64,000 bases of DNA, from the NCBI GenBank assembly GCA_944358675.1, contig CALVRN010000005.1, positions 232 to 64,231 on the forward strand, in the 5' to 3' direction. Shown here piece after piece: positions 16,738 to 55,566 of the stretch (positions are counted from its first letter, which is position 1; the number at the start of each line of letters is the position of its first letter). This DNA comes from an uncultured Bacilli bacterium (lineage in GTDB: Bacteria; Bacillota_I; Bacilli_A; RF39; UBA660). The notes beneath the pieces are model-generated. The model was not told the DNA's origin, made no database searches, and was given only the letters and a program-made list of their open reading frames with translations. The position numbers were made by a program, and so were the translations under genes.

Positions 16738-16809
16738 AAAACTCACCTCAAACTTCAAATATGTTATAAACAATATTAACACGTTTAATTAGAAAATTCA
16801 AGAAAAAGT

Positions 16810-36248: not shown

Positions 36249-36296
36249 AGATATCACCTCTGACTAAATTATAACATATTTAATATTTAAATCAAT

Positions 36297-36417: not shown

Positions 36418-36491
36418 TGGTGCCGCAACGGAGAATCGAACGCCGATTAAAGCCTTACCATGGCCTCGTAATACCTTTATACTATTGCGGC
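36418..36491 (-). tRNA. tRNA-Thr (anticodon GGU)
   Basis: Hand-folded cloverleaf: acceptor GCCGCAA/TTGCGGC, anticodon stem AGGCC/GGCTT, loop ATGGTAA (U33, GGT, A37), T-loop TTCGATT, encoded CCA. There is one C-U mismatch in the T stem and a 4-nt variable loop. Confidence 0.8.
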
Positions 36492-39288: not shown

Positions 39289-40485
39289 TTATGGTAAGTT
39301 TAAAACTTGACCAATCATTAAAGTATTACTAGTTAAACCATTTAAATTTTTTAGTTCATTAACTGTTATCCCATATCTATTTGCAATACTCCATAAACTG
39401 TCTCCACTTTTAACTGTATATGTATTAAAGCCATTTGGAACCTTTAAAACCTGACCTATACTCAAATTATCACTCGTTAAACCATTTAAGTTTTTAAGTT
39501 CACTTACTGTAATTCCATATTTATTAGCAATATTCCACAAACTATCTCCAGCTTTTACTGTATAAGTATTAGAGTTATTTGAACTAGATGAATTACTTAT
39601 TTTTAAAACCTGACCTATACTCAAATTATCACTTGTTAATCCATTTAAATTTTTAAGTTCAGCTACTGTTAACCCATATTGATTAGCTATTTTCCATAAA
39701 CTATCTCCAGATTTTACTGTATAAGTTCCACTACTAGAACCACCAGGTACTTCTAAAATCTGTCCAACACTTAAATTATTACTAGTTAAACCATTTAAAC
39801 TCTTAAGTTCATCAACTGTAATTCCATATTTATTGGCTATCTTCCATAAACTATCTCCACTTTGTACTACATAATAATTACCACTTTCAGGTAAAGATGG
39901 AATTGTCTCTCCCTCATAAGTCGCAATTACCGCATCGACAACCGCATCAACATATTCTTTATAGTTATTTTGTATTTTAGCTAAATCCTCTGGATTATCA
40001 ATAAAACCATATTCAACTATAACCGGATGAGTATTACTTCCAGTATTTCTATGCATAAAATAATAGTCTTTAGATGTATCACTTGGAAGTCTTCTTTGAT
40101 AAAACTTTCTCATCTTTTGTCCTGCATTACCCAAAGCTGTTAAAATATTAGAAGCAAGTGTACTATTATCTCTTAAAGCATATATAACCTCTGCCCCTTC
40201 AGCCCCCTGTATTCCAGAGCCAGCTGCATTAATATGATTCGAAATTACAACTACATTAGGATTATCCCCATATGCCGCAAGCACTCTATTTACTCTATCT
40301 GTTGGTGAAATAGTCTCATCAGTACTTCTAATTAAAGTAACTGGAACTCCTCTTTTTTGAAATTCTTCATACATATACTGAGCTATCATTAAAGTTAAAT
40401 CTTTTTCTTGTACTCCAGAACTACTAACAGCCCCAGGATCAGTTCCTCCGTGTCCAGCATCTACAACTACTTGTAAATTATTCAC
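39289..40485 (-). CDS. N-acetylmuramoyl-L-alanine amidase (Amidase_3) with four C-terminal LysM repeats
   Basis: VVVDAGHGGTDPGA and NHINA. Four copies of YTVKSGDSLWKIANxYGxTVxELKxLNGL. GTG start at 40485 with SD AGAGGTGG. Confidence 0.9.
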   Translation of the reverse strand: MNNLQVVVDAGHGGTDPGAVSSSGVQEKDLTLMIAQYMYEEFQKRGVPVTLIRSTDETISPTDRVNRVLAAYGDNPNVVVISNHINAAGSGIQGAEGAEVIYALRDNSTLASNILTALGNAGQKMRKFYQRRLPSDTSKDYYFMHRNTGSNTHPVIVEYGFIDNPEDLAKIQNNYKEYVDAVVDAVIATYEGETIPSLPESGNYYVVQSGDSLWKIANKYGITVDELKSLNGLTSNNLSVGQILEVPGGSSSGTYTVKSGDSLWKIANQYGLTVAELKNLNGLTSDNLSIGQVLKISNSSSSNNSNTYTVKAGDSLWNIANKYGITVSELKNLNGLTSDNLSIGQVLKVPNGFNTYTVKSGDSLWSIANRYGITVNELKNLNGLTSNTLMIGQVLNLP

Positions 40486-40541
40486 ATAACCACCTCTACA
40501 TTAAAATATGTAAAAGTGCCTATAAAGTTACAAAAAAAGAT
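40444..40541. repeat. Direct repeat DR1: amidase codons 1-14 plus 56 bp upstream (intact copy)
   Basis: A 98-bp segment repeated at 50120-50217 (same length, about 85% identical by eye) and partly at 55510-55551. Confidence 0.8.
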
Positions 40542-40596
40542 GTATAAACACCTTTTTAATCATTTTTTCAAATTAGCACTATTTAAAAATTAATTA

Positions 40597-42243
40597 CTAT
40601 TTATGCTTAAAATGTGAAACTTCAGAATTATTCTTGTTTTTATCATCTATTCTTCCATACAATAATGATAAATTATTCACTTGCATATCTCCAGAAATTT
40701 TTTCTTCTTTCCACTTAAATTCTGATAAATCAAGCATTTCTTTAATTTTTTTAGAAGCATCAGGTAAAATTGGGGCAATCAAATTAGCAATATTAGCCAT
40801 CATATAAACACATGTATAAGTGGTATTATTAAAAGCCTTTATATCCTCTTTTACTTGATTCCATGGTTGTTGGCTATCATAATACTTATTACCTAAACTA
40901 ATATAATCTAATATAGAAATAACAGCCTTTCTAAATTCTCCAGCCTCAATATGACTTCCAACCAATTTATAAATTTTAGAAGTAGTATTAGCAATATTAG
41001 AATCTATAATTCCTTCTGTAATCTTACCATCAAATTTTTTACAAATAAATGATAAATTTCTATTTACAAAATTACCTAACATTCCGACCAAAAATTTATT
41101 ATGGCATTGTACAATTTCCTCATAAGAACAATTAATATCGTCTGCCTCGGGACCATTAAATGCGAAATAAAATCTAATCGTATCTTTATCAAAATATTCT
41201 AGGAGTTCATTAGCTGTAATCAAATTCCCTTTACTTTTACTCATTTTTTCATTATTTAAATTAACATAGGCACTAGAAACAATATAATCAGGTAATCTAT
41301 ATCCTTTGTTTAATCCTGTCAAAAGAGCCGGAAAAATTGTAGTATGAAATGGAATATTATCTTTTCCGTGAACATAATAAGTAATTAAATTTTTATTAGA
41401 ATCTGATAAGAATTCATCAAAATTAATATTTCTTTCATTCGCAACTTGGGTGCCAGCAGAAAGATATCCAAGTACAGCTTCTATCCAAACATAAATTCTT
41501 TTATCATCATATCCTTTTACAGGTACTTCGATTCCCCAATTCAATTGTCTTGTTGCAGCTCTATCAATTAATCCAAGATTAAGAAACTTTTGTGCTTCAC
41601 CTACAGCATTTTTTCTCCAGTGTTCTTTATTGTTACTAATCAATTCTTGCAACACTGGTGTAAATTTAGACAATGCAAAATACAAATGATTATTGTTTTT
41701 AGTAATACATTTAGTACCACAAGTTTTACAATGTTTATCAAGTACTTCAGAACTATCTAATGAAGCATTGCAAACTTCACATTGGTCACCAGTACTTTTA
41801 CCACCACATATCGGACAAGTTCCGACAATCTCTCTATCCGATAAAAATGTTCCACATGTTTCACAGTAATCTTGAGGTACTTCTTTTGCATAAATATAAC
41901 CATTTTCAATTAATCTTTTAAAATTATCTTGAACATATGATTGATGAAAATCATCCATTGTATTTGAATACAAATCATACTCAAACCCTAAATTATCAAA
42001 AGTCTTTTTAAATTCTTGATGATAATATGCAGCAATTTCCTGGGGCGAAACACCTTCTTTCTTAGCCCTTTCAGTTATAGGTGTACCATGACAATCAGAA
42101 CCAGATACATAAATTACATTATCTCCGTTACCTCTAAAATATTTTGCTAAAATATCCCCTGGTAATAATGCAGCCAAATGACCAACATGTAAAAAATAAT
42201 TAGAATATGGCCATGCTCCTCCAATAAAAATATCTCTTTTCAT
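40597..42243 (-). CDS. metG: Methionine--tRNA ligase, two-knuckle type, no C-terminal tRNA-binding domain
   Basis: HVGHLAA (HIGH), KMSKSKGN, and four CxxC pairs in the connective peptide (CETC, CPIC, CEVC, CKTC). 548 aa. Confidence 0.93.
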   Translation of the reverse strand: MKRDIFIGGAWPYSNYFLHVGHLAALLPGDILAKYFRGNGDNVIYVSGSDCHGTPITERAKKEGVSPQEIAAYYHQEFKKTFDNLGFEYDLYSNTMDDFHQSYVQDNFKRLIENGYIYAKEVPQDYCETCGTFLSDREIVGTCPICGGKSTGDQCEVCNASLDSSEVLDKHCKTCGTKCITKNNNHLYFALSKFTPVLQELISNNKEHWRKNAVGEAQKFLNLGLIDRAATRQLNWGIEVPVKGYDDKRIYVWIEAVLGYLSAGTQVANERNINFDEFLSDSNKNLITYYVHGKDNIPFHTTIFPALLTGLNKGYRLPDYIVSSAYVNLNNEKMSKSKGNLITANELLEYFDKDTIRFYFAFNGPEADDINCSYEEIVQCHNKFLVGMLGNFVNRNLSFICKKFDGKITEGIIDSNIANTTSKIYKLVGSHIEAGEFRKAVISILDYISLGNKYYDSQQPWNQVKEDIKAFNNTTYTCVYMMANIANLIAPILPDASKKIKEMLDLSEFKWKEEKISGDMQVNNLSLLYGRIDDKNKNNSEVSHFKHK

Positions 42244-42269
42244 TAAGAATCCTCCCTTTTGATTTAAGT

Positions 42270-42298
42270 ATTATAGCATAAATGCTATATATATGCAA
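42270..42298 (-). promoter_or_regulatory. Candidate metG promoter TTGCAT-17-TATAAT with an 18-bp perfect palindrome in the spacer
   Basis: Minus strand TTGCATatatatagcatttatgcTATAAT. The palindrome tatagcat-aa-atgctata is at 42272-42289. Confidence 0.4.
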
Positions 42299-42332
42299 AC
42301 TTATATATATTATATACCATTTACACTTTTTA

Positions 42333-42977
42333 TTAATAAAAATATTTTTCTAAATATTCTTGTATTTTATTTTTTAAGTATATTTCTTTATTAATATTAT
42401 TTTTTTTATATCCCAAATAATATTCTCCTTCAGCTCCACTATATTGATTCCTATACATTAAATAAAGTATATTTTCAACAGTTAATTCTTTCAAATTATT
42501 AAAACCTATAATCGACTCTAAAATAATTTTCCACGCTAATTCTTCAAATTCTTTTATTTGATTTATATTTTTTCCTATCACTAAGTGATCTGTAGTTAAT
42601 ATATTTAATAATAATCTAACCTTCATTTCTTTTGAAGATAAAAACTCATTATCCTTTTTTATATCTGAAATAAAATATTTACCATTTTTTTTAAAAGGAT
42701 TTGATGATAATATTTTTTTTACTTCAAAAATTGTATATATTAATTTGTTTTCATAAGGAACTTCCTCATCTAATTTTAGTCCATTTTCTTCATGATAACG
42801 TATTGTTTGTAAAATAATATCTTTTTTTTCCTTCTCACTAATATTATTGACAAGTATACAAACATCCAAATCACTTGAATTAGAATCATAAATATTTGAA
42901 CCATAAAAAATCATAGTAGGACATAAATAAGCATAATTATTTAATATATATTCATAATAACTTTGACATAATTTCAT
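42333..42977 (-). CDS. Pol-beta superfamily nucleotidyltransferase with helical C-terminal domain
   Basis: FYGSNIYDSNSSDLDVCILV fits G[SG]-x(n)-D-x-D. The size and architecture resemble ANT/KNTase-like enzymes. Confidence 0.6.
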   Translation of the reverse strand: MKLCQSYYEYILNNYAYLCPTMIFYGSNIYDSNSSDLDVCILVNNISEKEKKDIILQTIRYHEENGLKLDEEVPYENKLIYTIFEVKKILSSNPFKKNGKYFISDIKKDNEFLSSKEMKVRLLLNILTTDHLVIGKNINQIKEFEELAWKIILESIIGFNNLKELTVENILYLMYRNQYSGAEGEYYLGYKKNNINKEIYLKNKIQEYLEKYFY

Positions 42978-42978
42978 T

Positions 42979-44484
42979 TTATTTATTTTCTCCTTTTATT
43001 TTTGTTGCCACTTCGATTATGTGTGTTAGCATATTATTTATATCTTTATAAGAAATATTATCATTTCCAGACATATATCTTAATACAACTATTGTCTCAT
43101 CTTCTTTTATAGCCCCCATATTATCGATGATAGGAAATCTGTGTAAATAATACTTACCTTCTTTTAATAAGTAATCATAAATTTGTGAGTTCAACGCATT
43201 AATATCATTTATATTCATTTTTGATAATTCATTTTTATTATCTACATACACAAATACAACTGAATTAATATTAACCTCATTCATTAAAATAAAATGATCA
43301 CTTTTCAATATTTGTTTTTTCAAATATTGAGCCATATCACAACGTCTTTCAATCAGTTTTCCTATGTTTTTTATTCCAAGGTTTTGCATCATAAACCATG
43401 TTTTTAAGGAAACCCAGCTTTTTGAACCTATAAAAGGTGTAATTTGACCAAAGGCAAAGTCTTCTTGCATTATCAAATCAGAAGTTGAAGTTACTAATTT
43501 AAATTTTTCTGGATCTTTAATTAATAAAGCACTCATACAATATGGAATTGCAAGTACTTTATGTGGATCTGTAGAAATACTATCGAATAATTCAATACCT
43601 TCAATTTTCTTTTTTAATTTTTCTGAAAAAGCTAAAGAGAAACCATGACATGCATCTACATGTAACCATATATTATTATCTACAGATTTCACGACTTGAT
43701 AAACAGCTTTTAAATTTTCTATTGTCATAGTACGACTATCACCAACATATGAAACAACGCACATAATTTTTCCCTTATTTTTTAATAAAGTTTCTCTTAA
43801 AGCGCTAATATCATACCTATAATTTGCTGTTTCAACTTCTATAATATTATCACCACAACCTATCCACATTAAAGCGCTTCTAATACTATAATGACCAATT
43901 CCTTTGGGTATTATAACTTTATAATTTTCTGGATTTTTAACACCATTAATCATGGTATCTTTTTTAAAATTTTCTCTAGCTAATAATAAGGCAATCGAAT
44001 TACTACCAGTCCCACCGTACGTAATTACACCTCCGACATCCCATATATTATTAATTTTTTTTATTTTATAGCCTAAGATTTCACGAAACCATTTAATAAC
44101 AGCTATTTCCATATAAGTTGCAATTGGTGCGCAAAAAGATGAATTTATTAAATTTTGCTGTAAAAAATCCGACATTATCGCCCCACTAATACCAGCTACT
44201 GAATTTCCAGCATCTGGAAAGCCCATAAAGTTTTCATTACTAAAATTAGTACAATATGGCAAAATTTCTTCGCTAAAATATTTTAGTAAATCGTTTAATT
44301 CAATACCATCTAATGGTATTTTTAACAATTGATTGATTTGCTGCTTTTTTGATTGTTTTTCTTTAACATCATTATTTAATTTAAACTTAAAACCTAATTC
44401 TAACGTTTTTTCAAAACATTTATAAGCGTATTCTTCATTTTCTTTATTTAGAATTTCTTTCACCGCTATAACTTCCCTTCCCAA
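42979..44484 (-). CDS. Group II pyridoxal-phosphate-dependent decarboxylase
   Basis: YGGTGSNSIALLLAR, HVDACHGF and the PLP lysine in STDPHKVL. The start may be the GTG at 44463 rather than the TTG at 44484. Confidence 0.85.
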   Translation of the reverse strand: MGREVIAVKEILNKENEEYAYKCFEKTLELGFKFKLNNDVKEKQSKKQQINQLLKIPLDGIELNDLLKYFSEEILPYCTNFSNENFMGFPDAGNSVAGISGAIMSDFLQQNLINSSFCAPIATYMEIAVIKWFREILGYKIKKINNIWDVGGVITYGGTGSNSIALLLARENFKKDTMINGVKNPENYKVIIPKGIGHYSIRSALMWIGCGDNIIEVETANYRYDISALRETLLKNKGKIMCVVSYVGDSRTMTIENLKAVYQVVKSVDNNIWLHVDACHGFSLAFSEKLKKKIEGIELFDSISTDPHKVLAIPYCMSALLIKDPEKFKLVTSTSDLIMQEDFAFGQITPFIGSKSWVSLKTWFMMQNLGIKNIGKLIERRCDMAQYLKKQILKSDHFILMNEVNINSVVFVYVDNKNELSKMNINDINALNSQIYDYLLKEGKYYLHRFPIIDNMGAIKEDETIVVLRYMSGNDNISYKDINNMLTHIIEVATKIKGENK

Positions 44485-45462
44485 TTACTTTAAAATTATC
44501 ATTTTATTACCATTTATTTTTATATGCCATTTTTCAAATAAATCCAAATTTATAAAATCAGATAAATTACTAATCATATTGTAATAATATTTTTCTAAAA
44601 TTTTTCTGGATTCATCACTCATTCTTTCAACATTTAAATTCTTTTTTGAAAATAAAACAGGAATTTTCCAAGTTAAAAAATTTAAAAATTTACACATATT
44701 ATCTGAAATAAACGGAATTTTTTCTATTAAGATTGGTCGATAGATTTTGGAAAACCATATCTTGTTTGCCTTTATTGTAAAAAGATTTCTAGGCAATCTA
44801 TTACCATCATTAGAATGTAAATTATAATTTATAAACTCTTCAGATTTAACATTGATAAAATCAAAAATTTTTAAACACTCTTTTTTAGGGTTTTTAATAA
44901 AATCTTCAAAAAATATTATTTTAATATTATCTTTACCAAAAGTTTCAGTATAGTCCTTAATTTTATCATAATAATTTCCACTTTCACAAAAAAATGTAGA
45001 AGAAGATTCTTTTAAAATGGGATAATTGTTTTCAAATATAAAATTATTTTTAATCCATTTATCAAATAATTGTTTTGTAGAGTTTCCCAAATTATCACTA
45101 AGATTTGAGAAGCAAGTTCCATCAAGCAAATTCATTTTAAAATCAGAATATAAACGATCAATTGGATTTCTAATTAGAAAAATAATTTTTACATTATTAC
45201 CATAGTCTGCTTTTATTTGTGATGCGGAAACATTTCTTCCCAAAATAGGATTAATTTCCATTATAACTTTTTTATTATTTCTTTTCGAATAATATCTATT
45301 TTCATACCATTCAAAACCTTTTTTTTCAACAAGTTCTTTCATACCATAATAAATTGGCTCTTTTATACCAGATAAATATATATCTGGATGCTGTTTCATA
45401 ATATCATATAATGTTGTAGTACCACATTTAGCAAAACCGACACATAATATATTTGGCTTCAT
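44485..45462 (-). CDS. PAPS-dependent sulfotransferase family protein
   Basis: 5-prime PSB loop VGFAKCGTTTL and 3-prime PB motif LIRNPIDRLYSDF. A very strong SD (GGGGGGAGGA) supports the ATG at 45462 rather than the track start at 45546. Confidence 0.8.
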   Translation of the reverse strand: MKPNILCVGFAKCGTTTLYDIMKQHPDIYLSGIKEPIYYGMKELVEKKGFEWYENRYYSKRNNKKVIMEINPILGRNVSASQIKADYGNNVKIIFLIRNPIDRLYSDFKMNLLDGTCFSNLSDNLGNSTKQLFDKWIKNNFIFENNYPILKESSSTFFCESGNYYDKIKDYTETFGKDNIKIIFFEDFIKNPKKECLKIFDFINVKSEEFINYNLHSNDGNRLPRNLFTIKANKIWFSKIYRPILIEKIPFISDNMCKFLNFLTWKIPVLFSKKNLNVERMSDESRKILEKYYYNMISNLSDFINLDLFEKWHIKINGNKMIILK

Positions 45463-45545
45463 ATCCTCCCCCCCTTTCGTAACAATTAAAATAATATTAT
45501 AAAGTTTTATTAACATTGTACTAATTATAACATATAAAATTGACA

Positions 45546-47363
45546 TTACAGTTTTATTTTTTCTTTTATTTTCTCAAATATTTTTTTTGCGCATTCTTGA
45601 TAATCGTTATTATTTAAAATCAAATCAGGGTTTAAAGGCTCCTCAAATACTGAATTAATTCCCGTAAAATCCCTAATAATATTCTTGCGAGCTTTTTTAT
45701 ACAAACCTTTTTTATCTCTTTTTTCACACTCTTCTAATGGCGTATTTAAATATATTAAGAAAAATTTATCACCAATTATTTTCTTGGCCATTTTTCTATT
45801 TATTTCTAATGGACTAATAAAAGCAGTTATACAAATTAAACCAGCTTCATTCATTAATTTAGCCACTTCAGCAATTCTTCTAATATTCTCTATTCTATCA
45901 TCATCAGAAAAAGACAAATCTCTATTTAAACCTAATCTAATATTGTCACCATCTAATAACATAGTATGAAACCCATTTAGATTTAATATTTTATCAAGTT
46001 CATTGGCAATTGTACTCTTTCCAGAACAAGATAAACCTGTAAACCAAACTGTAATAGGATTTTGACATAATGTTTTTTTTCTCTCTTCTGAAGAAATACT
46101 AATACTTTGATAAAATAAATTTTTATTTTCTAATATTTTATTTACTGTCGCACATGAACTAGTAACATGCGTTAAACGATTAATTAATATTAATGATCCT
46201 AATGATTTATTATGTTTGAACTCAGAAACTGCTATTTTTTCTAACACTTCTAAATCACAATTAATTATTTCGTTTTTACATACCTTTTCAAAATCAATTA
46301 TTTTCTCCTCAGTATCTATATCAATTTTATAATTTACTTTTCTAATATAACACAATGTACTAACAGTACCTAAGTTAATATAATAAGCACTATCTATTTT
46401 TAATTTTTCCTCATCCATCCAAAGCATTGTAACATTAAAACTGTTAGTAACATAAACATTATTATCATTTGTTAAAACGCAGCCCCTAGAAATATCAATT
46501 TCTTTATCTAAAGTTAATGTAACAGCCTCTCCATAATGGACTTTTGTAACTTCTTTATCTAAATTATACAATCTTTCAACATGAGCCGATTCTTCACTCG
46601 GTAGACAAGTAATTATGTCACCAACTTCTATACTTCCTGAAGTCACATTACCTTGAAAACCTCTGAAAAACTGATTAGGTCTACATACTCGTTGAATAGG
46701 AATAATAAATTTTTCTCCTATTTTTTTATTTACTTGAATATCTTCCAAATATTGCATAAGAGAAGTGCCATTGTACCATTTCATATTATTAGATTTAATA
46801 GTAATATTATCACCAATAGTAGCACTTATCGGAATAATGTTTAATGATGAATACTGATAATTTTCAAATAAATTTTGTATTTTCTTTTTTATATTATCAA
46901 ATATTCTTTTATCATAATCAACTAAATCCATTTTATTGACAACAACTATATAATCTTTTATTCCCATCATCATACAAATCTTGAAATGTCGTTTTGTTTG
47001 AATTTGTACTCCTTTTGTTATATCTATTAATAAAATTGCTAAATCTGCCTTGCTTGCACCTACTGCCATATTTCTTGTATATTCTTCGTGTCCTGGACAA
47101 TCAAGAACAATAAAATTTCTCTTTTTGGTATTAAAATATCTATAAGATACATCAATAGTAATACCTTGTTCTCTTTCTTCATCAAGACCATCTAGCAATA
47201 AAGCATAATCAATTTTTTTCCCATCTTTAATTTTACTATCTAATTCAAGTGTTTTTTCTTGATCTATATATAGCAATTTTGAATCATATAATAAATGTCC
47301 AATTAAAGTGCTTTTACCATCATCCACACTACCACAAGTTAAAATCTTTAACTGATCAATCAT
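45546..47363 (-). CDS. cysNC: Bifunctional sulfate adenylyltransferase subunit 1 / adenylyl-sulfate kinase (CysN-CysC fusion)
   Basis: GTPase G1 GSVDDGKST, G3 DCPGHEEY and G4 NKMD. The C-terminal APS kinase has the P-loop GLSCSGKST. Confidence 0.92.
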   Translation of the reverse strand: MIDQLKILTCGSVDDGKSTLIGHLLYDSKLLYIDQEKTLELDSKIKDGKKIDYALLLDGLDEEREQGITIDVSYRYFNTKKRNFIVLDCPGHEEYTRNMAVGASKADLAILLIDITKGVQIQTKRHFKICMMMGIKDYIVVVNKMDLVDYDKRIFDNIKKKIQNLFENYQYSSLNIIPISATIGDNITIKSNNMKWYNGTSLMQYLEDIQVNKKIGEKFIIPIQRVCRPNQFFRGFQGNVTSGSIEVGDIITCLPSEESAHVERLYNLDKEVTKVHYGEAVTLTLDKEIDISRGCVLTNDNNVYVTNSFNVTMLWMDEEKLKIDSAYYINLGTVSTLCYIRKVNYKIDIDTEEKIIDFEKVCKNEIINCDLEVLEKIAVSEFKHNKSLGSLILINRLTHVTSSCATVNKILENKNLFYQSISISSEERKKTLCQNPITVWFTGLSCSGKSTIANELDKILNLNGFHTMLLDGDNIRLGLNRDLSFSDDDRIENIRRIAEVAKLMNEAGLICITAFISPLEINRKMAKKIIGDKFFLIYLNTPLEECEKRDKKGLYKKARKNIIRDFTGINSVFEEPLNPDLILNNNDYQECAKKIFEKIKEKIKL

Positions 47364-48256
47364 TAAAAATATCCCTCCTTTTTTCTTTTTTCCATATTTG
47401 TATTATTCTCATGATCTATAACTCTACTAGTTCTTTCACTTGTTGTAGCAGATAAAGTTTCTTCAACAATTTTATCCAATGTGTCCGCATCTGAAATGCA
47501 TCCTCCAGTTAATGGATAACATCCCAAAGTTCTAAAACGTATCTTTTTTCTTGTAATTTTAGATTTATCAATATACTTTAATATTCTGTTATCATCAATC
47601 ATAATTAAGTTACCATTCACTTCAACAACATCACGTTCTTTTGAAAAATACAAAGAAACTACTTCAATTTTTTCACGTTTAATATATTCCCATATATCTT
47701 TTTCCGTCCAATTAGACAATGGAAAAACTCTAATTGATTCACCATCAAATAGCTTTGTATTATACAAATGCCATAATTCAGGGCGTTGATTTTTTGGATT
47801 CCAATTATGTGTTTTATTACGAAAGGAGAAGATTCTTTCCTTAGCCCGAGATTTCTCCTCATCGCGCCTTCCACCACCAAATGCAGCAGTAAAGCCATAT
47901 TTATCAAGTGCCTGTTTCAATGCTTCTGTTTTCATTATATCAGTATATACTGAACCATGTTCAAATGGATTAATATTATCTCGTACACCACTTTCATTAG
48001 TATACACTAGTAAATCAATACCATTTTTTTTTGCTTGCTCATCTCTAAATTTAATCATTTCATGAAATTTCCATGTCGTATCAATATGCAAAAATGGAAA
48101 TGGCGGCTTTTCTGGATAAAAAGCTTTAAGCGCAAGATGCATCATAACAGAAGAATCTTTTCCAATTGAATAAAGCATTACTGGTTTCTTACAAGTAGCT
48201 GCTACTTCTCTAATAATATATATTGCTTCAGCCTCTAATCTATCTAAATTATTCAT
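47363..48256 (-). CDS. cysD: Sulfate adenylyltransferase subunit 2
   Basis: [17 protein letters not shown], the PP-loop SIGKDSSV and C-terminal RVIDHE...KKEGYF. SD AAGGAG supports the ATG at 48256. TAATG overlap with cysNC. Confidence 0.95.
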
Positions 48257-48316
48257 GTTTCTCAACTCCTTAATATTCAATTAAAACATAACAATCATAT
48301 TTTTAACATTAAATAT

Positions 48317-49756
48317 TCATTTTCGATTAAAATCTCTTATTTTTTGTTTTGCATAACTCGTATGAGCTTTTTCTTTCCAATCATCACGTGGTCCAAATGA
48401 CAAATCATCAGTTACAATTCTAACCCTATCCTTATTTTGCAAAATATAATCGATTGGAACATATTCATCATTGACAAAAACACCAACCATTGTGTTTCCA
48501 ATATCAGTATTAAGTTTATAAGCAAAATCTATTGGTGTTGCACCTTTTGGTAATTCTATAATATCACCTTTAGGAGTATACACATAAACTTTATCAGAAA
48601 ACAATTCATTTTTAACTTGATTGACGAATTGTTGATTGTCACCAAACATTGAATTAATTTCCATTAATGATTGAAAAAATTGAAATTTTTCTTTTAAATC
48701 TTTCTGCATTATATCTCTTGCTTTACCTTTTTCTGCATCCCAATATACAGTTAATCCAAAAGAAGCTATTTTATCCATTTTAAATGTTCTAATTTGCGTT
48801 TGTACCAGTCTACCATCTAACCCAAAAACTGTTGTATGTAATGACTGATACATATTTGTTTTTGAATTACATATATAATCTTTAAATTTATTATTTACTG
48901 GATGATACTGAGAATGTATAATTCCTAAAGTTCTATAACAATTTTCAACCTCATCCACCATAATTTTTAATGCCAACAAATCATGAATGTCAGAAAGTCT
49001 ATGTCCTTCATTTAATCTTTTATATATACCATATATATTTTTGGTTCTCACTTTTATTTCATTAGGAATATTCTTATCATTTAACAAACGTTCAATTGTT
49101 CCTAACATTTCTCCTAAACATTCAGCACCATCTTCTTCTATCTTTAATTTCTTTTCTTCAATTCTTTTATACATATCAGGTTTTAAATATTGAAGTGATA
49201 AATCTTCTAGTTCAGACTTAATTCTATATGCTCCTATATAATAAGCAAGTGGTACAAATATTTCCATTGTTTCTAAAGCATTTTCTTTTTGTTTAAATTC
49301 TGATTTAAATTGTAATGTTCGCATATTATGAAGTCTATCTGCGAGTTTAATAATAATTATCCTCACATCTTCAGTTATACCAGTAATAATTTTTCTAGTA
49401 TTTGCGTAATTTTGATCTTGTTTTGAAGAAAAATTCATTTTAGCGAGTTTAGTAACCCCATCAACTAAATCAGCAATATTTTGATTAAAATCATGAGCAA
49501 TGTCTTCCTTTGTAATTCTTGTATCTTCTAATGTGTCATGTAACAAGCCAGCACAAACAGTATCCCTATCTGCATGTAATTCAGATAATATATATGCTAC
49601 ATTTAAAGGATGACTAATATAAGGTTCCCCACTTTGCCTATATTGTCCCGCATGTAAATCACTTGCATAGTCATAAGCTCTTCTTACAATTTCGATTTCT
49701 TCAGGATTATACTCTTTCAATATTCTAACCAAATCATCTAATACAATATTTTTCAT
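48317..49756 (-). CDS. Long-RSH (Rel/SpoT) paralog truncated after TGS, island copy A
   Basis: HPLNVAYIL, LLHDTLEDT, KLADRLHNMRTL, YQSLHTTV, VQTQIRT and a TGS domain. About 60% identical to the gene at 15283-16737 by eye. SD GGGTGGTG supports the ATG at 49756. Confidence 0.85.
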   Translation of the reverse strand: MKNIVLDDLVRILKEYNPEEIEIVRRAYDYASDLHAGQYRQSGEPYISHPLNVAYILSELHADRDTVCAGLLHDTLEDTRITKEDIAHDFNQNIADLVDGVTKLAKMNFSSKQDQNYANTRKIITGITEDVRIIIIKLADRLHNMRTLQFKSEFKQKENALETMEIFVPLAYYIGAYRIKSELEDLSLQYLKPDMYKRIEEKKLKIEEDGAECLGEMLGTIERLLNDKNIPNEIKVRTKNIYGIYKRLNEGHRLSDIHDLLALKIMVDEVENCYRTLGIIHSQYHPVNNKFKDYICNSKTNMYQSLHTTVFGLDGRLVQTQIRTFKMDKIASFGLTVYWDAEKGKARDIMQKDLKEKFQFFQSLMEINSMFGDNQQFVNQVKNELFSDKVYVYTPKGDIIELPKGATPIDFAYKLNTDIGNTMVGVFVNDEYVPIDYILQNKDRVRIVTDDLSFGPRDDWKEKAHTSYAKQKIRDFNRK

Positions 49757-49773
49757 ATAACACCACCCAATTA

Positions 49774-49799
49774 CAAAAAAAGCATGACACACTTATGCT
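49774..49799 (-). terminator. Terminator-like hairpin overlapping the leader-ORF stop codon
   Basis: Minus strand AGCAUaagugugucAUGCU followed by U7. The TAA of the 39-codon ORF lies at the 5-prime arm/loop junction of the hairpin. The SD of the rel paralog follows within 15 nt. Confidence 0.45.
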
Positions 49800-49912
49800 A
49801 TTATCGTCATACTTCCAAGGAAAATAAAAGTCACAAAAGACATTATATTTATGCTATATAATGATTTCCAAGAAAATAAATAAATTTTTAATGTACATCC
49901 CCCTTGCGCCAT
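49793..49912 (-). CDS. 39-aa hydrophobic leader/small membrane peptide upstream of rel paralog A
   Basis: Not in the track. SD GAGAGGGG, then MAQGGCTLKIYLFSWKSLYSINIMSFVTFIFLGSMTIIA. A 38-aa homologous ORF is preserved at 55180-55296 despite many substitutions and an in-frame 3-nt indel. Confidence 0.4.
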   Translation of the reverse strand: MAQGGCTLKIYLFSWKSLYSINIMSFVTFIFLGSMTIIA

Positions 49913-50074
49913 CTTATTTCCCCTCTCAAGAAATATTTATAACTAAATTACTACACTATTAAATGTTTTGTCAACACATTCTTCACATTTTTTACAAATT
50001 TTACCATTTTTAGATATATTTTAACATACAAAAAAATTACTTTAATATAAACTAGTTTATAAAAAATTAATATA

Positions 50075-50161
50075 TTATAAGACTTCAAGCTTGTCCATCA
50101 TACAGAGGGTATAAAGGTATCCACCATGACCAGCATCGACAACCACCTGTAAATTATTCAC
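50075..50161 (-). pseudogene. Relic of the amidase 5-prime end (first 14 codons fused to unrelated sequence)
   Basis: Reads GTG-NNLQVVVDAGHGG and then YLYTLCMMDKLEVL-stop. The SD and upstream 56 bp match 40486-40541. Confidence 0.65.
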
Positions 50162-50217
50162 ATAACCACCTCTACATTAAAATATGAAATAGTAGGTATA
50201 AGGTTACAAAAAAAGAT
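50120..50217. repeat. Direct repeat DR2 (copy of the amidase 5-prime region)
   Basis: See DR1 at 40444-40541. Confidence 0.8.
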
Positions 50218-50242
50218 AGATATTTAGTATCCATCAAATAAA

Positions 50243-51019
50243 TTAATCAAAATTCAAGCCAACTTCATAAGGAAATAAAATCGACAATTCTTTAGGCTCA
50301 TTTATAAAGATTATTCTTTTAGCATAAGCTACCATAAAGCCAAATTCAAACATCGTTCCTTTACCTATTTTACCATCAGGATTACACACAATAATTGCAT
50401 CTACTTTTTTAAATTTATTCATATGATCATATTTATGACTCCAAGCATCTCTTTCATTAATCAACTCTTGTCCTTCTAAAAGTATAAAATCAGTTCCAAC
50501 CGTTTCAGGAACTATATTCATTGTCCATGGACTAAGTACTTGAATATTATGCTTTTTTAAACATTCAATTACAGCACCAATTTCTTGCATATGCTGTTGA
50601 AAACTACCACAAATTACAACTTTTCGAAATTCCTGATTGATTAAACCATCAAACATATTCCTTTTTCCGCTTATTTCAAAACTTCTATCTAAATAAAAGT
50701 TTTCTAAATCAGGCTGAACAATATTAAAGTAAAGACCAGAGCTAACAAAAACGTGAATAATTAATTGCATTTGTTCTTCCTTAGAAAATTCTTGAAAAAC
50801 ACCAGTTGCATATAACCTTACTCTATTATTATCAACAACACCAACTACATCTCTTAATTCATCCAAAAAATCATCAATTTTTTTTAATAATTCGTTATTA
50901 ACTAAAGTTTCATTAAAAAAAACTTGTTTCTTTTTTAACAACCTAAATGTTTTCTGCTCTAATTGATATATGCTTATATCATTAGTATTAAAATGTACAA
51001 ATATTTTATCCTTTTTCAT
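50243..51019 (-). CDS. Two-domain protein with a nucleoside 2-deoxyribosyltransferase-like C-terminal domain
   Basis: The C-terminal VVICGSF...VLSP...VDAIIVCNPDGKIGKGTMFEFGFMVAYAKRIIF resembles the NDT/Rcl-type Rossmann-like fold. The N-terminal half (RLYATGVFQEF...) faintly resembles Ppx/GppA. Tentative. Confidence 0.4.
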   Translation of the reverse strand: MKKDKIFVHFNTNDISIYQLEQKTFRLLKKKQVFFNETLVNNELLKKIDDFLDELRDVVGVVDNNRVRLYATGVFQEFSKEEQMQLIIHVFVSSGLYFNIVQPDLENFYLDRSFEISGKRNMFDGLINQEFRKVVICGSFQQHMQEIGAVIECLKKHNIQVLSPWTMNIVPETVGTDFILLEGQELINERDAWSHKYDHMNKFKKVDAIIVCNPDGKIGKGTMFEFGFMVAYAKRIIFINEPKELSILFPYEVGLNFD

Positions 51020-51034
51020 AGACTTTTCACTCTT

Positions 51035-51760
51035 TTATTTTCTATCTAAATTTTTATAATTTAAGGCATTCAAATATTTATTGAGAAATACATCCTTGTT
51101 CTTTGAATTATACTGCGTAATAAATCGAGGGTGCTCAAGTGGAATAATAGTGCCAAATAAATGATATTTTTCATTGAGTTTTAATAAAAATTTATAATTT
51201 TCACCACTGCCAATACAATAACAAACACTTGTATCAATATTAAAATGAATTTGCTTACGTAACGATTCCAAAATAAATGAATAAAGCATATTTTCTAATT
51301 CCTTGTTCTCATAATAATTACAATTAACTTCATTACCCTTTGAATTAACCCTAACTATACCAAGAGGGCAAACAAAACTCATATAAAAATCATTATAAAA
51401 TTTTGAACATCCTCCATATTCGCTCATTACTTCATATAAAAAATTTGAAGAAGATTTATTCACATAAAAATTATCAATGACAATACCGGTTTCCTTTTGA
51501 ATATGGGCAGCGTCTTCAAATGGTATACCAGTAACTGCTGTACCACGACGAGCAGGAGAACTACCTAATATTAAACGACGTTTTTTATTATCATTATAAA
51601 ATTTATGATAAAATAAAGTCGTTATTTTTTTTACTTCATTTTTAGAATCGCCATTAAATGGATTTATTATTTTATATCCTTTTGGTACATCCAACGACAT
51701 TCTAGATAAAGATTGATCAAATTCCAATATTTTTTGGGCAACACTTTCTTTTTTAATCAT
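51035..51760 (-). CDS. Uracil-DNA glycosylase superfamily protein (DUF4918/SMUG2-like?)
   Basis: LILGSSPARRGTAVTGIPFED resembles the UDG-fold motif G.NPG...TGIPF. SD AAAGGAGGT supports the ATG at 51760. Confidence 0.45.
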   Translation of the reverse strand: MIKKESVAQKILEFDQSLSRMSLDVPKGYKIINPFNGDSKNEVKKITTLFYHKFYNDNKKRRLILGSSPARRGTAVTGIPFEDAAHIQKETGIVIDNFYVNKSSSNFLYEVMSEYGGCSKFYNDFYMSFVCPLGIVRVNSKGNEVNCNYYENKELENMLYSFILESLRKQIHFNIDTSVCYCIGSGENYKFLLKLNEKYHLFGTIIPLEHPRFITQYNSKNKDVFLNKYLNALNYKNLDRK

Positions 51761-51860
51761 TACGATACCTCCTTTACTCACTATTTAAATTACATATAAC
51801 AAATTAATCACTATTATTAAACAAATTTAAATTTCCAAAAATATAATTATACATAATCTT

Positions 51861-52728
51861 TTACTTTGATATTGCAAATAAATAAATTTCTATATCAGTA
51901 AGCAACACTTGAATTTTTTTAAAACCATTAGATGTAAAATCAATTGACAATTTTTTCGCCATATCAATGCCTCTATAAATATCAACAAAGTCTGTCCCGG
52001 GAATTAATAAACTGGAAATAACACTCTTCTGCGTTGAATCCAAAAAACCATTAGCTATAGAAACAATAATACCTGCATCAGATTTTAGTACTCTATTTGC
52101 TTCAGAAATAGCCATTTTAACATCAAAAAACGAAGAATTATATGTTCTTAGCGAAACATATAAATCATAACTATCATCAGATAATGATGATAAATTTTCA
52201 GCTTTCGACAAAACACAATTAGCATTAGGTATTGACTGTTTGATTTTCTTTAATCCGTTTGGTGCAATATCTACAAAAGTAATATTTTGACAATTCAAAA
52301 ATAATATTCTTGCTTCATTTCCACTCCCAACACCCACATCAACTATAATTTTATCATCTAACGGAGAATCAAATAATCCCTTTATTTAAAATTAACTTAT
52401 TTTTCACAAATTTTCACCCGGAACTTAATTATTTTATGAACTAATGTTTCACCGTTTTTAAAAATTTCAATAGCCTCATTATCTTTTAGACTTTTAGCAT
52501 ATTTATTAATTAAGAACACACATTTTCTTTTAAACATTTTTTTATAAATTTTGGGAGAATAAATACAATTTGATTTTATTCTTTTATAAAACGATACACC
52601 ATCAAATTTATGGTTAATTTTAGGACCAATTAAATATGAACCTTCGTTTTAGCAACTAAAATATTTTTATTATTAATATTTTGATTTTTCAAAAAATCAC
52701 TATAAAATAAATATTTATTTTCTGCCAT
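51861..52728 (-). pseudogene. Class I SAM-dependent methyltransferase, disrupted N-terminal part
   Basis: The intact C-terminal 158 codons begin at motif I (IVDVGVGSGNE). The frame is open only back to a TAA near 52387. Upstream to the ATG at 52728 (MAENKYLFY...) the reading is broken by several stops. Confidence 0.5.
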
Positions 52729-53398
52729 GTTTTAAAATCTTTCCTTCTTTAATATTCATTAAACTGTCTGCCTCTGATGAAAAAACATCTAAATTATGCA
52801 TCAATTCTTCTTTTTCTTTAGTTTTATCACTAATCGCAATAAACCATTTTCCAATACTTGTATCCATAAATTTGTTAAGTTCATTAGCTGTCCTAATTTG
52901 TTTTGTTTTGTATAAAGGATCACAAACAATAAATTTATCATCATCATAACCAGAAACTAAAATAGCATGATATGCACTAGCAAGTTCACCCGCAAGTATT
53001 ATTGTTTTACCATCTTTAAGTAGTTCCTTCAATAATTTAGTATCTATATCAATCCCATTTATAGCACGTGCCCCTTTCGAGACAGCCCTATCTAAATATA
53101 CTTTGTATTCATCCATTGCACATTTAAAATCATTTTCACTAAGATTTTTTTTATCATTATTAAAAAGATTTATATCAGAATGATATATAGTTGTATCTAA
53201 TCCATTTTTAGATAAATGAAAAGCTAAAGCCGAAAACGGAGTCCCAGCCATATATTTTGAACCGTATACTTTATATAATCTTCTCTCATCATACCAATTA
53301 GCCTTATCCATAATTTGATAATATTCTAAAACCATCATTAAACATGCAATCGCACATGTATCCCCTCTTTGTTTATATGGTTTAATATTTTTGTCCAT
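52715..53398 (-). CDS. Papain-fold cysteine peptidase, C39-like/BtrH-N-like (probably 5-prime truncated)
   Basis: QRGDTCAIACLMMVLEYY (Cys nucleophile context) and AYHAILVSGYDDDKFIVCDP (His). The frame stays open for 97 more codons upstream (to 53689) without any ATG, GTG or TTG. Confidence 0.5.
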   Translation of the reverse strand: MDKNIKPYKQRGDTCAIACLMMVLEYYQIMDKANWYDERRLYKVYGSKYMAGTPFSALAFHLSKNGLDTTIYHSDINLFNNDKKNLSENDFKCAMDEYKVYLDRAVSKGARAINGIDIDTKLLKELLKDGKTIILAGELASAYHAILVSGYDDDKFIVCDPLYKTKQIRTANELNKFMDTSIGKWFIAISDKTKEKEELMHNLDVFSSEADSLMNIKEGKILKHGRK

Positions 53399-53702
53399 AT
53401 TTCTATTCCTTTCCTGTTTTAATTTTTCTAATGCCCTAATAATAATATCTCTAAATGCTTTCCTATCTGGATGCTCTAAAATAAAGTAAGCATGTCTTAT
53501 TTTATAATCATCAGAAATTATATAATGTTTTATCTTTTTTAATATTTCTTTTTCAGAAATGTTAATATATTTTGAAAATTCTTTTTTTAATCGACTCTGA
53601 AAAACTATCTCATCATTCGCATGATACTTACTTTTTAAATATTCTTTGAATTTCCATATATTTTTATCCTTTGTTTTTAGCCTATAAACTCAAAACACCA
53701 TT

Positions 53703-55141
53703 TTATTTTCTATTAAAATCTCTTATTTTTTGTTTTGCATAACTAGTATGTGCTTTTTCCATCCAATCATCTCTAGGACCATAAGATAAATCATCAGTAA
53801 CAATTCTTATTCTATCCTTATTTTGCAAAATATAATCGATTGGAACATATTCATCATTGACAAAAACACCGACCATTGTGTTTCCAATATCAGTATTAAG
53901 TTTATAAGCAAAATCTATTGGTGTTGCACCTTTTGGTAATTCTATAATATCACCTTTAGGAGTATATACATAAACTTTATCAGAAAATAGTTCATTTTTA
54001 ACTTGATTGACAAATTGTTGATTATCACCAAACATTGAATTAATTTCCATTAATGATTGAAAAAACTGGAATTTTTCTTTTAAATCTTGCTGCATTATAT
54101 CTCTTGCTTTACCTTTTTCAGCATCCCAATATGCAGTTAATCCAAAAGAAGCTATCTTATCCATTTTGAATGTTCTAATTTGTGTTTGTACTAATCTACC
54201 ATCTAGTCCAAAAACGGTTGTATGCAGTGACTGATACATATTCGTTTTTGGATTACATATATAATCTTTAAACTTATTATTTACTGGATGATATTCCGAA
54301 TGTATTATTCCTAAAGTCCTATAACAATTTTCAACTTAATCAACCATAATTTTTAATGCAAGTAAATCATGAATATCAGAAAGTCTATGTCCTTCATTTA
54401 ATCTTTTATATATACCATATATATTTTTTGTCCTTATTTTTATCTCATTATGAATATTCTTATCATTTAACAAGTGTTGAATCGTAGCCAACATTTCTTT
54501 TAAACATTCATCACTATCTTCTTCTATCTTTAATTTTTTTCTTCAATCCTTTTATACATATCTGGTTTCAAATATTGTAATGACAAGTCCTCAAGTTCAG
54601 ACTTGATTCTATATGCCCCTATATAATAAGCAAGTGGTACAAATATTTCCATTGTCTCTAAAGCATTTTCTTTTTGTTTAAATTCCGACTTAAATTGCAA
54701 TGTCCTCATATTATGAAGTCTATCAGCTAATTTAATAATAATTATTCTCACATCTTCAGTTATACCAGTGATAATTTTCCTAGTATTTGCATAATTCTGA
54801 TCTTGTTTTGAAGAAAAATTCATTTTAGCAAGTTTAGTAACCCCATCAACTAAATTAGCAATATTCTGATTAAAATCATGAGCAATATCCTCTTTTGTAA
54901 TTTTTGTATCTTCTAATGTATCATGTAATAAGCCGGCACAAACAGTATCCCTATCTGCATGTAATTCAGATAATATATATGCTACATTTAAAGGATGACT
55001 AATATAAGGCTCCCCACTTTGCCTATACTGTCCCTGATGTAAATCACTTGCGTAGTCATAAGCTCTTTTTACAATTTCGATTTCTTCAGGATTATACTCT
55101 TTCAATATTTTAATCAAATCATCTAATACAGTATTTTTCAT
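53703..55141 (-). pseudogene. Rel/SpoT paralog, island copy B, inactivated
   Basis: Near-identical to 48317-49756. A GAG-to-TAA nonsense change lies at 54336-54338 (MVD*VE versus MVDEVE), and a 1-nt deletion in the T-run at 54534-54540 splits the ORF into the 178-aa and 215-aa track fragments. Confidence 0.85.
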
Positions 55142-55179
55142 ATAACACCCCAACAGATTATAAAAAAAGTATGACACAC

Positions 55180-55551: not shown

Positions 55552-55566
55552 AAAAAGATATTATTT

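Follow-up and report, generated by a model that had tools for sequence, protein, structure and literature searches.

In a stretch of 64,000 nucleotides from an uncultured gut member of the Bacilli (contig CALVRN010000005.1; RF39, UBA660), referred to throughout as the window, five genes concerned with sulfate activation, sulfation, decarboxylation and, probably, nucleotidyl transfer lie between positions 42333 and 48256 of the minus strand. The question raised by this locus is whether the five constitute a pathway in their own right, as a first, sequence-only reading had proposed, or whether they belong to some larger unit and, if so, what that unit might make. Our answer to the first part is that they are not a stand-alone operon, but are carried as cargo by a larger one, mobile and swappable, within which two portable sets of genes have been joined; the second part can be answered only tentatively.

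The operon, termed module A (40547–50222, minus strand, 9.7 kb), is bounded by repeats and comprises, in order, a leader attenuator, a gene for a short RelA/SpoT homologue (RSH), the five cargo genes and a methionyl-tRNA synthetase (MetRS) gene. The window has a GC content of ~27%, and nearly all of its genes lie on the minus strand. The RSH gene (RSH-A) lies 36 bases upstream of that for CysD, and MetRS follows 89 bases downstream of the last cargo gene, which encodes a protein of 214 residues (NT214). All seven open reading frames (ORFs) are intact and retain their catalytic motifs, and ribosome-binding sites and tight spacing are kept at the joints. The sequence-only reading had the five-gene content right, but missed the RSH gene (48317–49756) that heads the operon with its own leader; its repeat-bounded island next to a MetRS gene is indeed repeat-bounded, and it is mobile as well, but the MetRS gene lies inside the island, not beside it. 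PADLOC models gave two marginal matches only (23 and 17 bits), and hence no known anti-phage defence system.

The five ORFs are tightly packed at the coordinates first given, and are confirmed by Pfam and NCBIfam matches, except that NT214 is recognized by motif and fold only. CysD (sulfate adenylyltransferase subunit 2; 47363–48256, minus strand) matches PRK12563 (NF009214) above cutoff, at 482 bits; its ORF can be extended to a TTG at 48280. A TAATG overlap is common to this gene and the next (45546–47363, minus strand), which encodes a CysN–CysC fusion of the ATP sulfurylase GTPase subunit and adenosine 5'-phosphosulfate (APS) kinase (PRK05506, NF004035, 721.8 bits; GTP_EFTU and APS_kinase domains). 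The one larger gap in the packing (45463–45545) is the scar left by the in-frame deletion of a permease gene of the TauE family, also on the minus strand: in blastn comparisons with the type T loci described below, the first and last TauE codons are left, in frame with the sulfotransferase, and the window joins position 8232 of locus L047 to position 8916, such that ~680 nt of TauE are gone (L-numbers, such as L001, L053 and L136, label loci on the related contigs used in comparisons). The remnant also yields an alternative sulfotransferase ORF of 353 residues with a hydrophobic N-terminal extension.

The sulfotransferase itself (44485–45462, minus strand, 325 residues; Sulfotransfer_1, 3e-17) is of the carbohydrate-sulfotransferase type and would use 3'-phosphoadenosine 5'-phosphosulfate (PAPS) as donor. 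Both PAPS-binding motifs first ascribed to it are present: Lys12 and Thr15–Thr17 of the 5'-phosphosulfate-binding (5'-PSB) segment GFAKCGTTT, and Arg98 and Ser106 of the 3'-phosphate-binding (3'-PB) motif, are invariant in 25 homologues. The nearest solved structures are 3RNL, a bacterial protein of unknown function, and then the heparan sulfate 3-O- and N-sulfotransferases (3-OST and NST). Homologues with 46–73% identity are confined to related Bacilli metagenome-assembled genomes (MAGs). At 37–40% identity, homologues form tandem pairs in glycosyltransferase-rich clusters with C2185-like_N domain proteins (L212 and L213), and those of Oscillospiraceae and Lachnospiraceae are 26–34% identical, the Lachnospiraceae loci having tandem paralogues of ~410 residues. 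Since the relatives are carbohydrate enzymes, or lie in glycosyltransferase clusters, a sugar hydroxyl, perhaps that of a ribose, is a likelier sulfate acceptor than the amine initially suggested. The resemblance to heparan-sulfate-type enzymes, and the glycosyltransferase context of the 37–40% identical homologues, would also suit a glycan of the cell wall or surface as the sulfate acceptor, given that the island adjoins genes for a LysM amidase and a PdaA-like deacetylase; this is hardly credible, however, as the latter pair lies beyond the repeat boundary, in the conserved backbone, and neither module A nor its close sister cassettes contain a glycosyltransferase, flippase or polymerase gene.

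The supposition that the cluster serves sulfation, and not assimilation, is borne out. CysD is the sole protein with a PAPS_reduct domain in the whole window, which thus has no CysH, and there is no sulfite reductase among the ORFs of the 35–59 kb region scanned against Pfam, the rest of the window not having been searched for this enzyme; both CysH and sulfite reductase are also missing from module A and from every sister cassette examined. An operon for assimilatory sulfate reduction is rejected on these grounds, and the gene content supports a dedicated PAPS supply for a sulfotransferase in non-assimilatory sulfation.

The sulfotransferase gene abuts that of a group II pyridoxal phosphate (PLP)-dependent decarboxylase (42979–44484, minus strand; Pyridoxal_deC, 5e-44, 151 bits), the likely start of which is a GTG at 44463, preceded by the ribosome-binding site GGGAAGGGAAG. 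Membership of group II is indicated by the motifs DPHK, which includes the PLP lysine, and HVDACHG, but no equivalog model reaches its cutoff, and the best relatives in the PDB (diaminobutyrate, acidic and aromatic amino-acid decarboxylases) match at 1e-26 or weaker. At E ≤ 0.001, 168 homologues were found for the decarboxylase and 815 for NT214 (42333–42977, minus strand). Whereas the sulfotransferase and decarboxylase matched the Pfam families expected of them, NT214 has no match in Pfam, NCBIfam or the PADLOC models. Its invariant residues are G26–S27...D36-x-D38 plus D70/E72, to be read against the hG[GS]x9-13Dh[DE]h motif and third carboxylate, on an alpha-beta-alpha-beta-alpha-beta core, by which Pol-beta-fold enzymes of the MNT/ANT kind are recognized, and its AlphaFold2 (AF2) model reaches a predicted local distance difference test (pLDDT) score of 93.5 with a 44-sequence alignment (46 with a single sequence). 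The top Foldseek matches are all Pol-beta nucleotidyltransferases (NTases), namely AAD(9), AadA, MNT antitoxins and GlnE, albeit weak ones (E 0.07 or weaker, TM 0.35–0.40). Because of the invariant motif and the exclusively NTase top matches, NT214 is probably a nucleotidyltransferase of Pol-beta fold (ANT/MNT-like). By BLASTP and hhalign, the NT214 family could be matched neither to sister-cassette NTases nor to the DUF4037 protein of L005 with any significance outside the GS...DxD motif; a single NTase family common to all sulfation cassettes is rejected, as this motif alone aligns.

Two portable units in one operon

The five genes, first taken for one candidate pathway to be checked for co-occurrence in other genomes, are not a single conserved pathway. 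The full set was found in only one other MAG, CALVIJ01, with which the window shares it as one allele. Judged by comparison with sister loci, the five genes are a recent mosaic of a portable sulfation head (CysD–CysNC–[TauE]–sulfotransferase) and a widespread decarboxylase–NTase–MetRS tail. The head occurs in several contexts. In type T cassettes, RSH–CysD–CysNC–TauE–sulfotransferase is followed by a very divergent class Ic (TrpRS/TyrRS-like) synthetase core, a phosphoribosyltransferase-like Glycos_transf_3 protein (GT3), a zinc-dependent alcohol dehydrogenase and a HAD phosphatase, usually with one or two TyrRS genes trailing. In L136, RSH–CysD–CysNC–TauE leads instead to an NTase-like gene, an unknown gene (F85), an S51 peptidase, a fusion of HAD phosphatase to sulfotransferase, and a NUDIX gene, and a further arrangement reads sulfotransferase–CysRS–DUF4037–NhaC–CysD–CysN–CysC. 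The tail is usually found as RSH–[Zeta-type kinase]–decarboxylase–NT214–[aminotransferase, MiaB-like methylthiotransferase, radical SAM]–MetRS; decarboxylase–NT214–...–MetRS is present in at least 11 loci, in three of which a Zeta-type kinase stands between RSH and the decarboxylase. In related loci, NT214 always comes after the decarboxylase.

The slot between RSH and the decarboxylase is thus occupied by the sulfation head in the window, by a Zeta-type kinase in three loci and by nothing in others. Because a kinase takes this slot in some sister cassettes, sulfate looks like an optional tailoring group, and the sulfamate linker of an adenylate mimic, as envisaged in the sequence-only reading, appears the less likely role for it. 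Two sister loci bear on the same chemistry: at L136 (9001–10632), the HAD phosphatase is fused to a sulfotransferase beside the NUDIX gene, and a cassette at L138 (3767–7437) has three sulfotransferase paralogues. Both suggest an exchange of phosphate for sulfate, and multiple sulfation.

The mosaic also bears on two other explanations. In the first, the sulfotransferase would act on a biogenic amine, for instance by O-sulfation of a decarboxylated amino acid, for signalling to host or community, with the NTase, RSH and MetRS as bystanders. Gut bacteria do sulfate small molecules, and the sulfotransferase and decarboxylase genes abut; however, their adjacency is a recent recombination joint, sulfotransferases with 67–73% identity sit with cargo lacking a decarboxylase, the decarboxylase has NT214 as its partner in nearly every case, and no sulfotransferase nearby, and the relatives of the sulfotransferase are carbohydrate enzymes, all of which makes this explanation very unlikely. 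In the second, a sulfation head has been fused to a MetRS-type tail with loss of TauE, and nothing useful is made. The TauE scar, the restriction of the combination to a single allele in two genomes and the decay of the adjoining cassette (module B, see below) would accord with such a non-functional mosaic, but the seven intact ORFs, the translation signals and spacing preserved at the joints, and the spread of the allele into another genome, the backbone of which differs, render it highly improbable.

That module A was exchanged as a unit follows from its near-complete identity to its counterpart in CALVIJ01 compared with 78–94% in the flanking backbone. Over 49909–40547, DNA identity to three contigs of CALVIJ01 (L056, L001 and L140) is 99.9–100%; it falls to 78–94% exactly at 40546, in the amidase repeat, and beyond the other end of the module it is 97%, then 92%, then 77%. 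The boundaries themselves are direct repeats of the 5' end of the backbone LysM-amidase gene. The right-hand repeat, where the identity breaks, covers the 5' end and upstream region of this gene (40444–40546, minus strand; repeat D5), and the left-hand repeat is a copy of the 5' end (50072–50222, minus strand; repeats D5 and D6): the first ~100 nt of the gene (40444–40546) recur at 50120–50222 and again at 55462–55555. A 5' fragment of the amidase gene also precedes RSH in L057 and L058.

Transfer and interchange of cargo are seen at other loci too. A third genome (L139) has the same MetRS at 93–95% DNA identity with flanks of ~77%, and L053, a MetRS cassette, and L136, the cassette with sulfation, NTase and S51 genes, share flanks at 96% and 86% while their cargo differs. 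The site that in the window lies between the Metallophos and amidase genes holds three other cargoes in L057 (closed genome OZ007038.1), L058 and L139. Pfam searches of the 35–59 kb region found no integrase or recombinase gene, and an integrase-mobilized island is set aside on this basis and on that of the amidase repeats at the boundaries; the simplest mechanism would be homologous recombination through the conserved RSH genes and the repeats. Irrespective of the chemistry, a 9.7-kb module that is 100% identical in backbones differing by ~15–20% shows that cassettes are being exchanged in the gut.

The short RSH gene and its leader

Transcription of module A presumably starts from a promoter that, read from the sequence, has a TTGACA –35 hexamer (49969–49974, minus strand) and a TAATTT –10-like hexamer ~18 nt downstream; in an alignment of 42 RSH leaders, TTGAC is kept at the –35 position. 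Next come a leader ORF of 39 residues (MAQGGCTLKIYLFSWKSLYSINIMSFVTFIFLGSMTIIA; 49793–49912, minus strand) and an intrinsic-terminator hairpin with a T-run (49778–49816, minus strand) that ends ~22 nt before the RSH start; the stop codon of the ORF falls within the terminator loop. Strong terminators, defined as hairpins of nine or more base pairs, three or more of them G–C, plus a T-run, are present in 29 of the 42 leaders, ending 19–40 nt before the RSH start, compared with a mean of 0.26 for shuffled sequences. All but one of these 29 leaders have an ATG-started ORF of 25–67 residues that stops in the hairpin or no more than 12 nt before it. As far as its layout can tell, this is the anatomy of ribosome-dependent attenuation, and it makes the leader-peptide attenuator a candidate sensor of translation stress.

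As in amino-acid-operon and antibiotic-inducible attenuators, the first gene is immediately preceded by an intrinsic terminator, within which a short ORF stops; unlike those, the RSH-A leader has no evident run of regulatory codons and matches no Rfam family. A search of Rfam at E values up to 10 found no relevant RNA family in the RSH-A leader, no amino-acid-specific codon runs were evident by eye in the leader peptides, and RNAalifold gave no consensus structure for 17 leaders, owing to their poor alignment. Scans with sigma-70 and terminator consensus sequences over 39–56.6 kb were uninformative in DNA of 27% GC (139 promoter-like sites, against 137 expected).

RSH-A (48317–49756, minus strand, 479 residues) is the first gene of the operon and consists of an HD hydrolase domain, a pseudo-synthetase domain and a TGS domain (Pfam HD_4, RelA_SpoT and TGS). 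It aligns over 463 residues with Bacillus subtilis Rel (6YXA, residues 21–483; E 1e-130), and the hydrolase domain is intact: the HDxxED motif is retained, LLHDTLEDT and ADRLHNMRTL are invariant, and HD_4 matches at 8e-42. In the synthetase domain, by contrast, the catalytic glutamate of ExQIRT is replaced by glutamine, and other positions conserved in B. subtilis Rel are changed; all seven aligned cassette RSH copies read QTQIRT, and RSH-C (see below) reads QMQIRT. The protein ends ~20 residues past TGS, without the zinc-finger domain (ZFD) or ACT/RRM domains. A bifunctional long RSH of the Rel type is rejected, given the absence of the catalytic glutamate and of the C-terminal ZFD and ACT/RRM. 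RSH-A thus resembles long RSH proteins (Rel/SpoT) and the small alarmone hydrolases in its alignment with B. subtilis Rel and its intact hydrolase motifs, but differs from long RSH in stopping after TGS, in its Glu-to-Gln substitution, in being multi-copy and in heading variable accessory operons.

The window contains three short RSH genes in its 64 kb, one of them a pseudogene, and all three lack the synthetase glutamate and the C-terminal ribosome-binding domains. The third, RSH-C (15283–16782, minus strand), is divergent (63% amino-acid identity) and is probably a housekeeping gene: it is placed between mreD and spoIVFA/FB-like genes, in a radC–mreC–mreD...rplU context. A short-RSH profile search of reference genomes found at least 407 relatives, several per genome, with at least two copies in a closed 1.54-Mb chromosome and three in one MAG, as in the window. 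Relatives on viral contigs reach no more than 42% identity, which gives no sign of phage carriage. The MAGs that carry the cassettes are labelled Bacilli, Tenericutes or 'Mycoplasma sp. CAG:472/611'.

Although the cassette RSH proteins are 70–96% identical to one another, 43 different families occupy the first cargo position in 66 loci. The cargo of sister cassettes includes YcaO with a C39-like peptidase and TMP-TENI; transketolase, decarboxylase, carbamoyltransferase and ROK proteins; an AsnRS-like catalytic core lacking the anticodon domain, with a methyltransferase and an S66 (MccF-family) peptidase; Pol-beta NTases, a CAT-like acetyltransferase and Acetyltransf_3 GNATs (RimL/MccE-type); and phosphoribosyltransferase-like and HAD enzymes. 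The family pattern is shown by these comparisons to be a promoter, a leader peptide with its stop in a terminator, a short RSH with hydrolase motifs, cargo and, often, an aminoacyl-tRNA synthetase (aaRS). In our search of the literature on RF39 or RelA/SpoT in combination with clusters of aaRS genes, no account of RSH-led cassettes came to light, and the system in uncultured gut Bacilli is apparently a large, undescribed family. Whatever the cassettes make, multi-copy, hydrolase-only short Rel paralogues at the head of accessory operons offer a new role of RelA/SpoT proteins to test, and the conserved attenuator is of interest as a possible translation-stress sensor in its own right.

Aminoacyl-tRNA synthetases and the putative product

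MetRS (40597–42243, minus strand, 548 residues; metG TIGR00398, 461.6 bits) is the last gene of module A. It has the HVGH and KMSKS motifs and zinc knuckles, lacks the C-terminal tRNA-binding domain, and is preceded by a promoter-like site of its own. Its linkage to the cluster, proposed from the outset, is genuine: it travels with module A, at 100% DNA identity to CALVIJ01 down to 40547 and 78–94% thereafter. The corresponding chromosomal site has no MetRS in L057, L058 and L136, an indirect hint that a housekeeping copy may lie elsewhere. More generally, when equal amounts of DNA within 10 kb of 80 RSH genes were compared, aaRS-family genes numbered 31 downstream and 4 upstream. Tandem aaRS paralogues are found in sister loci, with identities of 85% and 48% for TyrRS and 51% for Ile/ValRS. 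At the L139 hotspot (4562–11638), there are genes for LeuRS, a 477-residue protein, an S66 peptidase of the MccF/MccC family (E 1e-116 to Bacillus anthracis Ba3275) and MetRS, without RSH or biosynthetic genes, which looks like an immunity-only island in another species.

Several known systems combine such genes. The tiarin aaRS inhibitors were found through aaRS and GNAT genes enriched beside a variable operon, and a duplicate housekeeping aaRS was shown in every genome. Tiarin clusters, and those with an embedded aaRS gene (indolmycin, mupirocin, albomycin and SB-203208), resemble the RSH-led cassettes in having variable aaRS and GNAT genes beside a variable biosynthetic operon, an enrichment that predicts aaRS-specific inhibitors with target-based immunity; unlike the tiarin case, the biosynthetic enzymes here are unrelated and the MetRS is of the ordinary type of its lineage. 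With microcin C, the shared theme is a nucleotide–amino-acid conjugate aimed at an aaRS, with PLP-dependent decarboxylation (MccE1). Immunity to aminoacyl-nucleotides is an established function of MccF (S66) and MccE2 (GNAT), and genes of the S66 MccF family and for GNATs of the MccE2/RimL type occur in sister cassettes; ribosome-dependent termination is common to both systems. However, the module A decarboxylase belongs to group II and is not of the MccE1 type, and there is no exporter gene. A microcin C-like cluster is rejected, as Pfam detects no ThiF-type (MccB) adenylyltransferase domain in module A and the only short ORF, the 39-residue leader, ends in alanine and not asparagine; no MccA-type precursor was recognized, although no systematic search for one was made. 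The S66 peptidases, GNATs, aaRS-like cores and nucleotide enzymes of the sister cassettes fit nucleotide antimetabolites directed at aaRSs.

The closest parallel for the sulfation genes is with ascamycin (and dealanylascamycin) and nucleocidin, 5'-O-sulfamoyl nucleosides from Streptomyces. The ascamycin cluster combines genes for CysD, CysN, APS kinase, a sulfotransferase and AlaRS-like proteins, and like module A these clusters dedicate CysD, CysN and APS kinase to a PAPS sulfotransferase; counterparts of their phosphatase, phosphoribosyltransferase and Na+/H+ antiporter are found in sister cassettes. This had led to the proposal of a sulfamate- or sulfate-linked aminoacyl-adenylate mimic, with sulfur in place of the phosphate linker and a second, resistant MetRS as immunity, and the type T combination of GT3, HAD phosphatase and sulfotransferase, along with the HAD–sulfotransferase fusion, would indeed suit the conversion of a 5'-phosphate to a 5'-sulfate. 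Module A, though, has none of the sulfatase, amidinotransferase or radical-SAM genes proposed for formation of the S–N bond, nor genes for an acylsulfatase, halogenase, phosphoribosyltransferase or phosphatase, so that a cluster of the ascamycin/nucleocidin type is rejected, the Pfam scan of 40.5–50.2 kb having found no sulfatase, amidinotransferase or radical-SAM gene. It differs further in having MetRS where those clusters have AlaRS-like genes, in its low-GC uncultured gut Bacilli host and in that sulfation is an interchangeable add-on. Moreover, since the decarboxylase–NTase–MetRS core occurs elsewhere without sulfation genes, sulfur cannot be its essential linker, and we consider the adenylate mimic quite unlikely.

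We favour instead, at a little less than an even chance, the view that module A makes a sulfate-tailored nucleotide–amine antimetabolite tied to MetRS. CysD and CysN–CysC would make PAPS. The decarboxylase would convert an amino acid to an amine, perhaps a methionine-like one, as the link to MetRS and the methylthiotransferase of fuller cassettes suggest. The ANT-like NT214 might then couple the amine, or its hydroxyl, to a nucleotide, and the carbohydrate-type sulfotransferase would sulfate a sugar hydroxyl, possibly that of ribose. Every close sulfation cassette encodes an enzyme of the nucleotidyl- or phosphoribosyl-transferase type, and often a HAD phosphatase or NUDIX protein, and it is because of these transferases that we infer the acceptor sugar to be the ribose of a nucleoside or nucleotide. 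That sulfate replaces a phosphate is suggested by the existence of the HAD–sulfotransferase fusion; Zeta-family kinases phosphorylate sugar hydroxyls of nucleotides, which fits the equivalence of kinase and sulfotransferase in the slot. The sulfated conjugate would act on, or be handled by, MetRS, which would be co-inherited as target or immunity. The substrate of RSH-A would be (p)ppGpp or a similar 3'-pyrophosphate, the hydrolysis of which would blunt the stringent response during translation stress, and the attenuator would turn the operon on when ribosomes stall.

A number of points weigh against this scheme. The pathway is predicted from genes, and the five-gene combination, which exists as one recently transferred allele only and so offers no measure of selection, could be a non-functional hybrid. 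The assignment of NT214 is statistically weak, its profile does not resemble those of the sister-cassette NTases, and no model assigns a substrate to the decarboxylase. The Pfam scan found no exporter gene in module A, a consequence of the deletion of TauE. The MetRS is of the kind usual in this lineage: copies with and without a cassette are intermingled in a neighbour-joining tree of 51 sequences, and the cassette enzymes do not form a lineage distinct from the housekeeping ones. A cassette lies upstream in only ~9 of 47 MetRS relatives, and the cassette MetRS may be the sole housekeeping copy and not a resistant duplicate. Finally, ordinary genes, among them those for a two-component system and desulfoferrodoxin, are found in some of the operons led by RSH.

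Several of the same points would suit a nutritional or translation-stress module without any toxin, in which the attenuator senses stalled ribosomes and induces a (p)ppGpp hydrolase, an extra MetRS and enzymes for the salvage or modification of a methionine-related metabolite, which sulfation would simply tag or solubilize. Leader-peptide attenuators are typical of amino-acid and translation-stress operons, the S51 and S66 peptidases could free amino acids, and the ordinary, often cassette-free MetRS, the ordinary genes in some RSH-led operons and the lack of an exporter all find a place in it. We nevertheless hold it to be unlikely: such a module does not account for the hypervariable first-cargo position, transfer between genomes at 100% identity is typical of antagonism and immunity loci and not of core nutrition, and it is hard to see what the YcaO/C39, carbamoyltransferase, CAT-like, MccF-family and GNAT genes would contribute to nutrition. 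In addition, because PAPS reductase is missing, sulfate cannot feed the synthesis of cysteine or methionine.

The antimetabolite scheme can be extended, as a possible but doubtful generalization, to the whole cassette family. Gut Bacilli would then possess an accessory system built on several paralogues of a short Rel that has a TGS domain and hydrolase function only. Each paralogue, behind a ribosome-sensing attenuator, would head a recombination-swappable slot for pathways to aaRS-directed nucleotide or peptide antimetabolites, together with the target aaRS and detoxifying enzymes; the cassette in the window would be a methionine-directed version in which a ribose phosphate is replaced by sulfate. 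If this were true, an abundant, uncultured, small-genome gut lineage would carry dozens of compact (5–10 kb), self-contained aaRS-inhibitor pathways, the target of each being predictable from sequence through the gene paired with it, and could be mined directly for a wealth of antibacterial warheads and determinants of resistance. The swap of kinase for sulfotransferase would likewise be a natural exchange of phosphate for its sulfate isostere in a nucleotide metabolite.

Module B and the neighbouring genes

The region as a whole consists of two tandem modules, each flanked by copies of the amidase 5' end. The second, module B (50223–55555, minus strand), is an older, decayed cassette delimited by repeats, including the amidase copy at 55462–55555. 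The RSH gene and its upstream region are duplicated here (53702–55555) at 91–93% identity, but the copy is broken (RSH-B pseudogene, 53703–55177, minus strand). The RSH-B region has 97–98.5% DNA identity to the YcaO-type cassette of OZ007038.1, and the remnant of a C39-like peptidase gene (52715–53398, minus strand) matches the same cassette at 98.5%. Besides these, module B contains part of a methyltransferase gene, a UDG-superfamily gene (51035–51781, minus strand) and a nucleoside 2-deoxyribosyltransferase-like gene (50243–51019, minus strand), the last of which is followed by a terminator at 50208–50246.

Two further features lie outside the modules. An ORF of 551 residues without a Pfam match (57493–59148) adjoins tRNA-Arg(CCT). 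On the other side, downstream of a Fic-domain gene (35172–36257) and beside tRNA-Thr (36418–36491), a palindromic motif of ~38 nt (AAAAATGCACAATATT...) is repeated three times, with overlaps, in an operator-like array at 36297–36375.

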